Shown in pieces: positions 10,232 through 14,290 of a DNA stretch of 64,000 nucleotides (its first letter is position 1; each line of letters begins with the position of its first letter). The stretch spans positions 427 through 64,426 of the forward strand of contig CANQLX010000002.1 in NCBI GenBank assembly GCA_947624835.1, written 5' to 3'. Both the position numbers and the translations under genes were made by a program. A model generated the notes under the pieces. The model was not told the origin of the DNA. It was given only the letters and a program-made list of their open reading frames with translations, and searched no databases. The stretch is from an uncultured Clostridia bacterium (GTDB lineage: Bacteria > Bacillota > Clostridia > Oscillospirales > Acutalibacteraceae).

Positions 10232-10260
10232 TTGACATAAATAAATGATGATGTTATAAT
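10232..10260 (+). promoter_or_regulatory. Consensus sigma-A promoter (TTGACA-17 nt-TATAAT)
   Basis: Exact consensus hexamers at 10232-10237 and 10255-10260 with a 17-nt spacer, about 110 nt upstream of the DUF4178 gene. Confidence 0.6.
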
Positions 10261-10367
10261 ATCCTTAAATTACAGCTTGATAAAAAGAATTATAGTATTT
10301 AAGATAAATATCAGATAGAAAACCAACCGGTTAATACATTATTTTTTGTGGAGGGGGGATAGATTTC

Positions 10368-11465
10368 ATGCTATTTTCGACAGGAGATATCCTTCAGATC
10401 GATGGGCAGGAGTATAGGGTAGTCGGAAAAATTACCTATCGCAATACTGTCGATAATTGTTGTTGGGACGAATACCGTATCCTTTCGGTTATGGGTAATA
10501 TGGAAGCATGGCTCAGTATTGATGAGGTATATAAGGAATATTCAATCTCCCGTGTTGTGTTCCGTGCCGATCTCGGCGGATATCATGAGGTAGACCGCGG
10601 ACGGGAAATTGCGATGAGTGTGTACGGTGATGTTGATGTGGAAGTCGGCGATTCCGCATACTTTGCTGAATATGAGGATATAACGGAAGAAAAGATCGTT
10701 TCCGAGGAAGTGTGGGATGACGGTACTGAATATTCCGAGGGATATTATCTTGACGTGAACGAGATTGGTCTTGTTCGAAGCGAACCTGCAACAGTTTCCG
10801 CAGGCAGCTACCAAAATCCGAAAAGGGTACTCAAGGCTTTTAAAGTTGGAATAGTTATAGTTGTTGTTTTGATTATTTTTATTCCGATACTGGTAAGTGC
10901 ATTGGATATTATTATCTCTGATGAAACTATTGCCGATTATTTGGAGGAAAATCCGAATTATACATATTCTACTTCTATCACGGGACATGAACAGCAAAAG
11001 GCAGACGTCTATGAGGCCACAGCATCTAATGATGTGGGCACTATTGCAAAGGACATTATTGATGCCATCGAAGGTGAGACGGAGTATGTACAGGAGGATA
11101 CCGAGGATTCCGACGGAAGTGTCGCCATTCTGACTGACGAGGAATATTGTATCGTTTATCGCTCCGAAGAGGGCAGCGGCATACTGGTGCAGATATCCGA
11201 CCGCAAATATGCATATACGAGTGACAATGACCTATATCACGGTACCCGACGTTCACGCCGGTATTACCGCAGATTCTACTATTCGACCGGTTATACATAT
11301 GATATGGGTCGTTATAACAGCTATAGCTCCCCATACAGTTCATATAGTGACGTAAAAATCAACTATAATTCAGCCAATACCTATAACATCTATTCCGGCA
11401 GTGTTCGGCAGTCAAGCGTAGGATCACGCAGCTCCTCCGGCGGCGGACTGAGCGGCGGAAAATAA
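10368..11465 (+). CDS. DUF4178-TM-DUF4247 fusion protein
   Basis: The N-terminus fits the DUF4178 pattern (GDILQIDGQEYRVVGKITYRN...WDEYRILS...WLSIDE). There is a central TM helix (IVIVVVLIIFIPILV). The C-terminal half looks DUF4247-like and ends in a Y/S/R-rich tail and GGGLSGGK. RBS GGAGGGGGG. Confidence 0.65.
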   Translation: MLFSTGDILQIDGQEYRVVGKITYRNTVDNCCWDEYRILSVMGNMEAWLSIDEVYKEYSISRVVFRADLGGYHEVDRGREIAMSVYGDVDVEVGDSAYFAEYEDITEEKIVSEEVWDDGTEYSEGYYLDVNEIGLVRSEPATVSAGSYQNPKRVLKAFKVGIVIVVVLIIFIPILVSALDIIISDETIADYLEENPNYTYSTSITGHEQQKADVYEATASNDVGTIAKDIIDAIEGETEYVQEDTEDSDGSVAILTDEEYCIVYRSEEGSGILVQISDRKYAYTSDNDLYHGTRRSRRYYRRFYYSTGYTYDMGRYNSYSSPYSSYSDVKINYNSANTYNIYSGSVRQSSVGSRSSSGGGLSGGK

Positions 11466-11478
11466 AGGAGAGTTTATT

Positions 11479-11919
11479 ATGGATGTACTTTATGATATTT
11501 TGGATGTAGCAATTTATTCATGTCTTGGCATTATACTTATGCTGCTCGGTAATTTTCTGATTGACCTGATCATCCCATGTTCCTTTCCCGAAGAAATTAA
11601 AAAGGGTAATCAGGCAATAGGCTTTGTGTCGGCGGGTATTAATATCGGTATAGGTTTACTGTTGAAAGCGGCGATTGCCTCTCCTTCTGCTGTTACAACC
11701 ACTGCAAAGGAATCGCTTGCAGAAGGACTTATCAGCAGTTTGATCTATTTTGTGGTCGGAATTGTATTTTTTATCTTAGGATATCTTATAAAACGGCTTT
11801 TTGACAGAAAGCAGTACAACATTAACGATGAAATTGACAACGGAAATACCGCTGCCGGTATCATGGTTGCAGGTATATTTATAGGTCTTGCCATCGTTAT
11901 CAGCGGAGTGATTATGTAA
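11479..11919 (+). CDS. DUF350-family membrane protein
   Basis: 146 aa, four TM helices arranged as two DUF350-like repeats (GNQAIGFVSAG... and GNTAAGIMVAG...). Confidence 0.7.
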   Translation: MDVLYDILDVAIYSCLGIILMLLGNFLIDLIIPCSFPEEIKKGNQAIGFVSAGINIGIGLLLKAAIASPSAVTTTAKESLAEGLISSLIYFVVGIVFFILGYLIKRLFDRKQYNINDEIDNGNTAAGIMVAGIFIGLAIVISGVIM

Positions 11920-13448
11920 TGAAGATTTCCGGAAAAGTTCAGGCACCTGCCAAAGAATACCGTTTATTAATGCTGACAACGCTGTTGATCTCAGGCTGTT
12001 CCATGGTCTATGAGTTGATTATAAGTGCTGTCAGCTCTTATCTTACAGGCAATTCCACCCTACAGTATTCGGTTACTATCGGTTTGTATATGTTTGCTCT
12101 TGGTGTCGGTTCCTTCCTGTCCAAATTTATAAAAAGGAATCTGTGGGGGTGGTTCGCCAAGGTAGAAATAAGCATAGGCATCATCGGAGGCAGCTGCTCG
12201 CTGGTTTTGTTTCTGTCCAATCTTTACCTTACATCCTATGAGATTGTCATGTACATGGAAATACTGGCAATCGGTACGCTTGCCGGTCTGGAAATACCGC
12301 TTCTCACGAGAATTATTGAAGAAGATCGGAAGGAACTGCGGCTGACACTTTCATCAATCTTTTCTTTCGATTATATAGGCGGACTGATCGGATCGGTAGC
12401 CTTTCCCATGCTCCTTCTGCCTTCGTTCGGTTATTTTGCTACCTGTTTTCTTTCGGGTTCACTTAATCTGACAGCAGCCACACTTATTATGCTTAAATAC
12501 CGCAGAAAGCTGAACCACCCTCGTATTTACGGGGCGGCTGTTTTTATCTTCTTGTGTGCTATGATTGCAGGAATGGTTTTTTCGGAAAATATCAGTAATG
12601 TGATTGAAAATGGGTTGTACCGTGACCGTGTGATTCTTTCCGAGCAGACGGAATATCAGAAGATCGTTATTACCAAACACAAAGACGATCTTCGTCTTTA
12701 TATTGACGGAAACTGTCAGTTTTCTACTGTAGATGAATATCGCTATCATGAGGCATTGGTTCATGTTCCTTTGACATATGCCGAAAAGCATGATAAGGTA
12801 CTTATCCTCGGCGGCGGTGACGGTCTGGCGGCAAGAGAGCTTCTCAAATATCCGGAAACTCGTATTACTCTTGTGGACCTTGATAAGGCTATGACTGATC
12901 TTTGCAGCAACGAACCGCAGATTACTGCTGTTAATTGTGATTCACTGAAAAGCAGCAGGGTCAGAATTATCAATATGGATGCTTATGAATATCTCGAAAA
13001 TAATCAGGAACTGTATGATGTTATAATTGTTGATCTTCCGGATCCGAACAATGAATCATTAAATAAACTTTATACCAACGTATTTTACCGTATGTGTGCG
13101 TCACATCTTTCTTCCGGCGGAGTTATGAATGTACAGTCCACCAGTCCCTACTATGCCAAAAGTGCTTATTGGTGTATCGGTAAAACAATGGAAAGCGAAG
13201 GACTTCGGGTCAAGTCGTTCCATCTGCAGGTGCCGGCTTTCGGTGATTGGGGATTTCATATGGCTTCAAAAAAAGAACTTGAGAAACGTTATAAGCTCCC
13301 GGACGATACAAAATTCCTGACGGAAGAGAATCTTCCCACGCTGTTTGTTTTCGGAAAGGACGAGATACAAGAGGATATTGAAATTAATCGACTTACAAAA
13401 CCCGTTCTGATTCAGTATTATAATGATGCTGCCAGGGAGTGGGAGTGA
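11919..13448 (+). CDS. Polytopic-membrane polyamine aminopropyltransferase (spermidine-synthase-like)
   Basis: About 200 aa of N-terminal TM helices, then a SpeE-type domain (YHEALVH, VLILGGGDGLAAREL, IIVDLPDPNN). The start overlaps the DUF350 stop (TAATG). Confidence 0.85.
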   Translation: MKISGKVQAPAKEYRLLMLTTLLISGCSMVYELIISAVSSYLTGNSTLQYSVTIGLYMFALGVGSFLSKFIKRNLWGWFAKVEISIGIIGGSCSLVLFLSNLYLTSYEIVMYMEILAIGTLAGLEIPLLTRIIEEDRKELRLTLSSIFSFDYIGGLIGSVAFPMLLLPSFGYFATCFLSGSLNLTAATLIMLKYRRKLNHPRIYGAAVFIFLCAMIAGMVFSENISNVIENGLYRDRVILSEQTEYQKIVITKHKDDLRLYIDGNCQFSTVDEYRYHEALVHVPLTYAEKHDKVLILGGGDGLAARELLKYPETRITLVDLDKAMTDLCSNEPQITAVNCDSLKSSRVRIINMDAYEYLENNQELYDVIIVDLPDPNNESLNKLYTNVFYRMCASHLSSGGVMNVQSTSPYYAKSAYWCIGKTMESEGLRVKSFHLQVPAFGDWGFHMASKKELEKRYKLPDDTKFLTEENLPTLFVFGKDEIQEDIEINRLTKPVLIQYYNDAAREWE

Positions 13449-13501
13449 TAGTATTACTGTATACTGCTTCTGAATAATATTGATTTAAAAAGGATTTGTC
13501 T

Positions 13502-14290
13502 ATGAATATAAAAAATTTAAAAATAGACGGCGGAAAACCGTTTGATTGGGGTAAAACATCTGAGGTTTATGCAAAATACCGGGATATCTACCCTCAGAAA
13601 TTCTATGATAAAATTATTGAGCGTGGATTATGTATAAATGGTCAGACTGTACTTGATGTTGGAACGGGAACAGGGGTGCTTCCGAGAAATATGTACCGCT
13701 ACGGTGCAAGGTGGATAGGTACGGATATTTCTGAAAATCAGATAGAACAGGCAAAAATTCTTTCAAAAGATTTGGATATTGAGTATTATACTATGCCTAC
13801 CGAAGATGTCGGCTTTCCTGATAATTATTTTGATGTTATAACAGCGTGTCAGTGTTTCTGGTATTTTAAACATGAGAAGGTATGGCATAACTTTTTCCGA
13901 ATGCTTAAACACGGTGGTAATATATTGATTTTATATATGGCATGGTTGCCGTTTGAGGATAAAATTGCAGGTGCAAGCGAAAAACTTGTCTTAAAATACA
14001 ATCCGACTTGGAGCGGTGCAGGTGAAATTATGCACCCAATAGATATACCGGAATGTTATAATGAGAAATTTGAACTTGTCTATCGTGAAAAATATCCGCT
14101 TATGGTACATTTTACCCGTGAATCATGGCATGGAAGAATGAAATCATGCAGGGGCATAGGGGCTTCTCTTTCGGAAGAGGAGATTTCTGAATGGGAGGAG
14201 GAGCATATTAAATTACTTTCCGAGATTGCTCCGAATGAATTTGATATTTTACACTTTGGTGCTATTGCAAAATTGAAAGTAAGGAAATAA
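13502..14290 (+). CDS. Class I SAM-dependent methyltransferase
   Basis: Motif I VLDVGTGTGVL. ATG at 13502, 7 nt after the AAAAAGGA RBS. Confidence 0.8.
   Translation: MNIKNLKIDGGKPFDWGKTSEVYAKYRDIYPQKFYDKIIERGLCINGQTVLDVGTGTGVLPRNMYRYGARWIGTDISENQIEQAKILSKDLDIEYYTMPTEDVGFPDNYFDVITACQCFWYFKHEKVWHNFFRMLKHGGNILILYMAWLPFEDKIAGASEKLVLKYNPTWSGAGEIMHPIDIPECYNEKFELVYREKYPLMVHFTRESWHGRMKSCRGIGASLSEEEISEWEEEHIKLLSEIAPNEFDILHFGAIAKLKVRK

Follow-up and report, generated by a model that had tools for sequence, protein, structure and literature searches.

A putative membrane-embedded aminopropyl-transfer module with a DUF4178–DUF4247-like fusion protein in an uncultured Clostridia bacterium

We analysed a 64-kb stretch of DNA (the window; all positions refer to its + strand unless stated otherwise) from contig CANQLX010000002.1 of an uncultured Clostridia bacterium, in which four co-directional genes follow a consensus promoter. 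The first three, genes 1–3 (10368-13448), on balance probably form the core of a membrane-embedded aminopropyl-transfer module that makes polyamine at the cell envelope or delivers it there. Gene 1 codes for a protein with a DUF4178 domain and a DUF4247-like domain, gene 2 for a DUF350 protein, and gene 3 for a polytopic membrane protein with a SpeE-type aminopropyltransferase domain. Judged by gene order in other species, genes 1–3 are a tightly conserved functional unit. Its usual fourth component is speD, the gene for S-adenosylmethionine (AdoMet, SAM) decarboxylase, which was overlooked in the preliminary description of this DNA.

Relatives of gene 1 were scanned in one genome per species; 136 species were positive and 80 loci were retrieved, from Ruminococcus, Oscillospiraceae, Lachnospiraceae, Eubacterium, Butyrivibrio, Acetatifactor and Clostridium. 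Synteny was counted by tblastn of the window proteins against these loci, with the loci that have enough flanking DNA as denominators. DUF350 stands directly after gene 1 in 76/77 species and SpeE comes next after DUF350 in 71/72, and six further metagenomic contexts agree with this synteny. Directly upstream of gene 1, speD is present in 52 of 75 species, while 23 of 75, including the window's own clade, have no speD in the operon. The flanks of the operon differ among all species examined. In the closest other species, with a SpeE 89% identical to that of the window, genes 1–3 are bounded by convergent and divergent genes and no methyltransferase is present. A methyltransferase of the gene 4 type is found downstream of SpeE in 0/66 other species and follows SpeE only in contigs of the same species from two other samples (L098/L099); gene 4 is therefore not a component of the system. 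Thus, the four-gene unit proposed in the preliminary description holds for genes 1–3 and fails for the methyltransferase. Nothing stands out as a sign of horizontal transfer, with a GC content of 0.37-0.43 over 6-18 kb against a window mean of 0.40. The sole exception among the 77 loci is Lachnospiraceae bacterium KH1P17 (L080 9983-11409), where a full-length gene 1 homologue has no DUF350 or SpeE within 10 kb and is followed by a small zinc-ribbon protein.

The partnership is also found outside Clostridia. Full-length SpeE homologues (34-41% identity) are encoded together with DUF4178, DUF350 and speD on megaplasmids of Ralstonia and Alteromonas. On the Alteromonas plasmid (L014 6968-13626) the order is SpeE, speD, a hypothetical gene, a TelA-like 'toxic anion resistance protein', DUF4178, a hypothetical gene and DUF350 (289 aa), TelA taking the position that PspA holds in other lineages.

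The four open reading frames (ORFs) occupy 10368-11465 (365 aa), 11479-11919 (146 aa), 11919-13448 (509 aa) and 13502-14290 (262 aa). Their coordinates and junctions are as first described: a 13-nt gap between genes 1 and 2, a TAATG overlap between genes 2 and 3 and a 53-nt gap between genes 3 and 4. The perfect TTGACA-17-TATAAT promoter at 10232-10260 is likewise present and is the sole 12/12 match within 7000-17000. In 20/74 relatives a 12/12 consensus precedes the operon by no more than 260 nt, as compared to 1/300 shuffled sequences that reach 12/12; 9 further relatives have an 11/12 match. Because the perfect promoter recurs well above chance, strong transcription seems to be a trait of the operon. 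A search for riboswitches or structured RNA in the leader gave no match in Rfam, even at E<=1.

The enzyme of the module is gene 3. It matches PRK03612, the full-length equivalog of membrane polyamine aminopropyltransferases (NCBIfam NF002956, cut-off 472 bits), with 603 bits over aa 10-508 on profile positions 15-521 of 522, and Pfam Spermine_synth with 121 bits; more than 7,800 relatives were found at E<=1e-10. The complete SpeE-type domain noticed earlier on a polytopic membrane protein is thus borne out. Its motifs GGGDG and DLPDP lie at aa 298-302 and 372-376, and Y276, G298-G302, D320 (the acidic ribose ligand), D372 and D375 are invariant over the 30 homologues in which invariance of gene 3 residues was judged. 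The catalytic domain aligns with structure 1uir at E=1.6e-28, with residue-by-residue alignment of the SpeE motifs. Foldseek finds 1uir/3anx at E=4e-15 with a TM-score of about 0.73, and the nearest structures are a Thermus tri-amine/agmatine aminopropyltransferase and thermospermine synthase. In SpeE enzymes of known structure, the distal ammonium of the diamine is bound by the second Asp of D-x-x-D-P. Since this Asp is kept in gene 3, the acceptor would be di- or polyamine-like. All catalytic residues expected of SpeE are found in gene 3, the acceptor-binding Asp pair included, and the enzyme is predicted to be competent. Catalytic fold and motifs match those of the soluble SpeE enzymes (Thermus thermophilus 1uir/3anx, thermospermine synthase 6bq2, Thermotoga 1jq3), with a Foldseek E of about 1e-14, target-normalised TM-scores of 0.73-0.80 and 27-28% identity; however, these are cytosolic and standalone, whereas the N-terminal ~230 aa of gene 3 are a conserved membrane domain, and no homologue of it with a known structure was found. 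No enzyme assay for the membrane SpeE subfamily was found in the literature, and papers on YjfC, Rv2601, DUF350 and the peptide spermidine ligase gave no functional data on it.

Judged by column identity, the membrane domain of gene 3 is more conserved than its catalytic domain: the values are 0.77-0.93 for transmembrane (TM) helices TM1-6, 0.79 for the catalytic domain and 0.51 for TM7. The membrane core contains the invariant acidic residues E32, E83, E125 and D151, which are also kept in Proteobacteria. Its topology is puzzling. The mean number of Lys plus Arg residues (K+R) in the N-terminus and in loops L1-2, L2-3, L3-4, L4-5, L5-6 and L6-7 is 2.6, 0.0, 2.9, 0.0, 3.3, 0.03 and 4.1, respectively, and the flank after TM7 is acidic. 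The same alternation is seen in 30 sequences from Clostridia and in the homologues of Ralstonia and Alteromonas. By the positive-inside rules it predicts a protein of seven TM helices whose N-terminus faces inward and whose SpeE domain faces outward. Of these helices, TM7 has the highest hydrophobicity and the lowest conservation, and the residue after the conserved Pro168 is polar or charged in every lineage, which supports a TM5/TM6 hairpin. In the AlphaFold 2 (AF2) model read by DSSP there are only six helical segments, with residues 140-193 forming one continuous helix of 54 residues (a reading of secondary structure only). Such a merged TM5/TM6 helix would restore a cytoplasmic catalytic domain, with both termini on the same side. 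If the catalytic domain is outside, the simple picture of synthesis in the cytoplasm followed by export is wrong. The result is a sharply defined paradox of topology.

Gene 1 is a bitopic protein. Pfam DUF4178 (PF13785, gathering cut-off 25 bits) scores 50 bits on it (E=4.5e-13; aa 5-129 on profile positions 2-135 of 136). This domain has a net charge of -20 and 15 invariant Asp/Glu residues, and in the AF2 model it is all-beta with a predicted local distance difference test (pLDDT) score above 90; the mean over the whole model is 84. The charged flanks of the TM helix predict an N-in/C-out orientation. In an alignment of 25 gene 1 sequences DUF4178 is conserved, the linker is variable, one TM helix is present, and the following domain of ~110 aa and the tail are conserved. 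The Tyr/Ser/Arg-rich tail and terminal GGGLSGGK pointed out earlier are indeed there, the tail being conserved in 25/25 of these sequences; in the model it is mostly helical, with a pLDDT of ~90 up to aa 340. Foldseek of the gene 1 model against PDB returned nothing at E<=1e-3, and matches to lipocalin-, GID4- and lectin-like beta-barrels were disregarded, with TM-scores of 0.3 or less. We also considered a kinship of the tail (...SVRQSS..SRSSSGGGxSxGK) with those of the DUF1190 lipoproteins YgiB/YjfM as a mark of polyamine conjugation. This was rejected as a compositional likeness only: the real score of the tail profile on the YgiB and YjfM tails is reached by 540/1000 and 720/1000 composition-matched shuffles. 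Among relatives of gene 1 outside the window (P0188, P0228, P0046), some have DUF4178 twice in tandem, followed by the TM helix and the DUF4247-like domain (535-538 aa), and others have internal duplications of the tail. Tandem DUF4178 domains imply that the cytoplasmic module can be duplicated.

The whole gene 1 architecture of 355-380 aa is present in at least 502 protein clusters, all from Clostridia, where the fused form is commoner than the split one (at least 502 clusters vs 16). The C-terminal half alone, searched against 1.84 billion (1.84e9) representative proteins, gave 119 clusters, of which 88 are at least 300 aa long with the match in their C-terminal half. A few matches are standalone lipoproteins or N-terminally anchored proteins with the same motifs and tail as gene 1, and in their operons the order is DUF4178 (174 aa), lipoprotein, DUF350 half, DUF350 half, SpeE. 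Alignment of the fused with the standalone family by hhalign gives 100% probability (E=2.6e-60), and a Clostridium sediminicola lipoprotein matches window 10941-11243 at E=1.3e-8. Because the split homologues keep the gene order and the two families align in this way, gene 1 is a true fusion, as had been proposed for the DUF4178-like N-terminus joined through a TM helix to a second domain.

The name given earlier to that second domain, DUF4247, needs qualification. Pfam DUF4247 (PF14042, cut-off 27 bits) has no match on gene 1 or on its isolated C-terminal half, even at E<=10. The standalone protein P0237 scores 30.3 bits for this family and two other standalone proteins score 22 and 17 bits. 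Among the same 1.84e9 proteins, the C-terminal half of the window protein matches P0237 (E=6.4e-4) and P0218 (E=4.7e-7). The canonical DUF4247 protein, Rv2599 of Mycobacterium tuberculosis, is exported (PMC3726780). Given the intermediate sequences, the exported location and the equal position in the operon, the C-domain seems to belong to DUF4247 as a distant homologue, a relation traced via intermediate sequences only. Direct assignment to DUF4247 thus did not stand, while remote homology did. Profile searches recovered the other families that had been named, DUF4178, DUF350 and spermine/spermidine synthase, directly.

Gene 2 is a four-helix DUF350 protein, as its first reading had it: PF03994 (cut-off 26 bits) scores 102 bits over aa 5-145, and four hydrophobic helices are present. 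In split operons DUF350 is encoded by two half-size genes.

An operon of this kind has already been described by comparative genomics. Ravi et al. 2024 (mSystems 9:e00847-23, PMC11237479) described a 'second group' of operons associated with the phage-shock-protein (PSP) system, consisting of a CesT/Tir-PspA dyad, a 7TM-spermine/spermidine synthase, YjfL (DUF350), a lipoprotein (Ctha_1186 domain) and DUF4178, with Shewanella AAN56744-47 as an example. There, DUF4178 is described as intracellular and beta-rich, the lipoprotein as novel and YjfL as an 8-TM form; related ATP-grasp operons have a DUF4247-containing variant (PMC11237479). The statement in the preliminary description that sets of these DUF proteins recur with membrane SpeE is thereby confirmed. 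In C. sediminicola (L102) and Vallitalea longa (L103), CesT_Tir_1 and PspA_IM30 are divergent, then come DUF4178, the lipoprotein, 2 x DUF350, SpeE and an RCK K+ channel. Because this split form carries the CesT/Tir-PspA dyad, the module can be identified with the published operon, of which the window instance is a reduced, domain-fused, PspA-less variant without speD and with a single-gene DUF350. The 7TM-SpeE, DUF350 and DUF4178 families stand in matching order, and the clostridial lipoprotein is homologous to the C-domain of gene 1. However, the dyad and the K+ channel are missing in the window, DUF4178 and the lipoprotein are fused so that there is no separate lipoprotein gene, and DUF350 is a single 4-TM gene instead of two halves (split operons) or an 8-TM form. 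The Ctha_1186 lipoprotein and the gene 1 C-domain may be one family. The absence of pspA from the window was correctly noted at the outset: tblastn with C. sediminicola PspA and CesT found nothing, and no PspA_IM30 occurs among the 30 other ORFs scanned. None of the 80 fused-type loci contains PspA, CesT or the K+ channel. The fused PspA-less variant is common in gut and rumen Clostridia, and the window holds one of hundreds of instances.

Three other described systems share parts of the module. The AdoMet decarboxylase (AdoMetDC)-linked membrane aminopropyltransferase clusters (Li et al. 2019, Biochem J 476:2579) are matched by speD upstream of the DUF4178 gene in the relatives counted above and beside SpeE in Alteromonas; the window operon differs in having no speD, and none occurs in the 64 kb. 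In E. coli yjfIJKLMC (and tolC-ygiBC), DUF350 (YjfL) is likewise tied to polyamine chemistry and to a PspA-family protein; the preliminary description of this cluster, with YjfJ, YjfL and the polyamine-related ATP-grasp enzyme YjfC, is correct. Its enzyme is an ATP-grasp ligase, not an aminopropyltransferase, and its partners are DUF2170, DUF2491 and DUF1190. In M. tuberculosis, Rv2599 adjoins the membrane SpeE Rv2601. An actinobacterial variant with DUF4247, DUF2617 and DUF350 is known (examples CCP45395 and CCP45394; Ravi et al. 2024, PMC11237479). As in the window, an exported DUF4247-type protein is partnered there with DUF350 and polyamine enzymes, but its DUF4247 is a separate protein of ~143 aa, whereas the window domain is Pfam-divergent, long-tailed and fused to DUF4178, and DUF2617 and the ATP-grasp ligase are missing from the window operon. 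YjfC/YgiC is an ATP-grasp peptide-spermidine ligase according to Pederick et al. 2023 (cited in PMC11762307).

The module could work in the following way. With the operon driven by its strong consensus promoter, SpeD, encoded elsewhere in the genome, would supply decarboxylated AdoMet (dcAdoMet), and the SpeE domain would move the aminopropyl group onto an amine that has a second positive charge, i.e. a di- or polyamine-like acceptor. Handling of this cationic substrate or product, at the membrane or across it, may fall to the acidic membrane core. The gene 1 and gene 2 proteins would form a complex with the enzyme and tie it to the state of the envelope; the charges of the two gene 1 domains, -20 and -22, would suit binding of a polycation. 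A transmembrane complex of three proteins is suggested by their obligate co-inheritance, the stop/start overlap and the fusion and fission of partners. The outcome would be a polyamine that is made at the membrane or cell surface, or brought there, and serves envelope homeostasis.

Several points weigh against this scheme. The K/R pattern predicts that the catalytic domain lies opposite the K/R-rich loops, away from cytoplasmic dcAdoMet. No speD or other polyamine gene was found in the 64-kb window, so that a supply of the dcAdoMet donor in this organism is an assumption. The three-protein complex is inferred from co-inheritance and fusion only, and the literature contains no experiment on any member of the family. 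A 2019 study by Li, Kurihara, Kim, Liang and Michael reportedly has in its title the words 'a polyamine-independent role for AdoMetDC'; by its title and the way it is cited, it argues for such a role of the linked AdoMetDC.

That last point leads to a different acceptor. As the main rival reading, proposed in the preliminary description, it is possible, though rather unlikely in our judgement, that the enzyme aminopropylates a non-polyamine component of the envelope: a lipid head group, a wall polymer, a protein or even the exported domain of gene 1. The idea is not new: Ravi et al. mention possible 'aminopropylation of other substrates' in their discussion and refer for it, as for the linkage to AdoMetDC, to Li et al. 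2019 (PMC11237479). Besides this remark and the title of the 2019 study, it would agree with an enzyme that is obligatorily embedded in the membrane and always paired with an exported domain, and with a catalytic domain predicted to be on the trans side. However, the Asp pair of D-x-x-D-P and the Tyr of DEYxYHE are invariant, and no conserved gene for the synthesis of an acceptor is present in the neighbourhood. The location of the active site can be asked separately from the acceptor. An ecto-enzyme, with the SpeE domain outside and the acidic 6-TM core passing dcAdoMet (or the amine) to an extracytoplasmic active site beside the DUF4247-like domain, would account for the K+R alternation from Clostridia to Ralstonia and Alteromonas, the acidic flank after TM7, the TM5/TM6 hairpin supported at Pro168, and the hydrophobic, poorly conserved TM7, as expected of a linker helix that crosses the membrane. 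We consider it improbable nevertheless: SpeD, which produces dcAdoMet, is a soluble cytoplasmic enzyme lacking a signal sequence, and the six helical segments of the AF2 model, with 140-193 continuous, would place both termini on one side. We know of no precedent for the use of an AdoMet-type donor outside the cell.

Two further explanations concern the extent of the system, and synteny speaks against both. According to the one, all four genes make up a single pathway in which the methyltransferase acts on the aminopropylated product or acceptor. Gene 4 is co-directional with the others, the gap before it contains no terminator and the layout repeats in the two other samples of the same species; yet this pathway is largely refuted by the absence of the gene from the 66 other species counted, the closest relative included, and the protein is a generic Methyltransf_11 of no specific family, so that we give it very little credence. 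According to the other, gene 3 is a membrane-anchored enzyme for ordinary housekeeping synthesis of spermidine and the two DUF proteins have unrelated roles. The NCBIfam equivalog 'polyamine aminopropyltransferase' and the intact catalytic site are in line with this. It is hardly compatible with the near-obligate co-inheritance of genes 1–3, with their start/stop overlap and the fusion and fission of partners, with a partnership kept from Clostridia to Proteobacteria or with a membrane domain more conserved than the catalytic one, and it appears highly improbable. The reading that we prefer is that of a module producing or delivering polyamine at the envelope.

The module of membrane SpeE, DUF350 and DUF4178 is widespread, in Clostridia, Proteobacteria and, per the literature, Actinobacteria including M. 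tuberculosis, and it is repeatedly tied to PspA-type envelope-stress systems. The fusion of DUF4178 with a lipoprotein domain is Rosetta-stone evidence for joint action of the cytoplasmic and the exported partner as a single unit across the membrane. A minimal conserved set can now be defined, comprising speD, DUF4178::lipoprotein, DUF350 and 7TM-SpeE, with PspA, CesT and the K+ channel as accessories that it can do without; the model no longer needs the methyltransferase or the PadR/HAAS/Toastrack genes. Delivery or attachment of polyamine by this enzyme at the envelope of abundant gut and rumen Clostridia would, if it occurs, bear on tolerance of membrane stress and on polyamine exchange in the community. 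If it is an ecto-enzyme that uses dcAdoMet from the co-operonic SpeD to aminopropylate an envelope component, this would be the first case of an AdoMet-derived donor at work outside the cytoplasm and also an envelope modification of a new type. The fusion and the topology paradox offer concrete handles on the function of the family.

Table 1. Positions of the promoter, leader, genes and protein domains in the window
Feature	Position	Strand	Basis or remark
Consensus sigma-A/sigma-70 promoter	10232..10260	+	TTGACA, 17-nt spacer with extended -10 TG, TATAAT
AT-rich 5' leader, ~100 nt	10261..10367	+	GGAGGGGGG ribosome-binding site ahead of ATG
Gene 1, 365 aa, bitopic fusion DUF4178 - TM - DUF4247-like - Tyr/Ser/Arg tail	10368..11465	+	profiles, alignment, AF2
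DUF4178 beta-rich domain, aa 1-138, predicted cytoplasmic	10368..10781	+	Pfam, AF2
Single transmembrane helix, aa 160-182	10845..10913	+	variable linker with KR = 4 before, acidic flank after
Predicted extracytoplasmic alpha/beta domain, aa 183-290, net charge -22	10914..11237	+	homologous to standalone lipoproteins
Basic Tyr/Ser/Arg tail, aa 291-365, net +9	11238..11462	+	13 Tyr, 18 Ser, 9 Arg; C-terminal invariant GGGxSxGK
Gene 2, 146 aa, DUF350/YjfL-family 4-TM protein, internally duplicated 2-TM unit	11479..11919	+	Pfam
Gene 3 membrane domain, aa 1-229, seven hydrophobic helices	11919..12605	+	TM1-6 highly conserved, TM7 poorly conserved linker helix
Gene 3 SpeE-type aminopropyltransferase domain, aa 230-509	12606..13448	+	intact DEYRYHE, GGGDG (12810-12824), DLPDP (13032-13046)
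Gene 4, class I SAM methyltransferase	13502 (ATG)/13496 (TTG)..14290	+	Methyltransf_11, 69 bits

Regarding the surroundings of the module, gene 4 and the PadR/HAAS/Toastrack genes are incidental neighbours. Gene 4 had rightly been called a class I SAM methyltransferase, and neither Pfam nor NCBIfam assigns it to a family more specific than Methyltransf_11. No terminator was found between genes 3 and 4 or between gene 4 and the next gene; as nothing of the kind separates genes 3 and 4, their co-transcription by read-through is possible.

The PadR/DUF1700/DUF4097 triad reported directly upstream of the operon was found by Pfam as a compact unit of three genes at 8272-10089 (+), coding for a PadR-like winged helix-turn-helix (wHTH) protein, a membrane protein of the HAAS (DUF1700) family and a Toastrack (DUF4097) protein. 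A promoter of its own, at 8278-8306 (11/12), is overlapped by the strong palindrome TAATACTA-N9-TAGTATTA at 8286-8310, which is probably the auto-operator of PadR. Ravi et al. 2024 (PMC11237479) described HAAS-PadR-like wHTH/Toastrack as a module for envelope signalling that occurs in contexts free of PspA. The triad matches that system and stands next to the operon, but it is a separate unit: Toastrack and PadR are each linked to the operon in 0/67 other species, and the palindrome is absent from the operon promoter. The significance earlier attached to this adjacency is thus not upheld, there being no shared operator. Regulation of the operon by the upstream PadR was rejected as well, as the leader contains one 9-mer half-site (10291), which is at chance level, and co-occurrence is 0/67.

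Downstream of gene 4, at 14538-15518 (+), lies a gene for a fusion of an HTH_3 (XRE) domain with a polytopic membrane region, with a GGTTGCAACC palindrome at ~14416 upstream of the gene. A full-length homologue of this protein (44% identity) is encoded directly downstream of SpeE in one Lachnospiraceae (L074), i.e. in 1/80 loci. On the other side, a DHHW-family protein at 6869-8131 (-) has an N-terminal low-complexity segment rich in Tyr/Ser/Arg/Gly (SYGYGSYRSRSYGYGSYRHGTGGGGG) before its TM anchor; the composition resembles that of the gene 1 tail, but the segment lies on the opposite (cytoplasmic) side of the membrane. A gene for a Tim44-like protein followed by an ORF of 472 aa is located at 38398-40644 (+), 25 kb from the operon, and in the closest relative (L008, 3874-6104) a Tim44-like and Band_7_1 pair is only ~2 kb from the DUF4178 operon. 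According to Ravi et al. 2024 (PMC11237479), Band-7 proteins occur repeatedly as partners of PSP systems. Upstream of a LeuA-type gene (30772-32469), a T-box leader scoring 110.7 bits occupies 32516-32749 (-), and a single tRNA gene is located at 61874-61946 (+). Otherwise the window carries ordinary chromosomal housekeeping genes: the hrcA-grpE-dnaK-dnaJ operon, murE/murF-like genes, LeuCD-like genes, SpoVAD and TatD.

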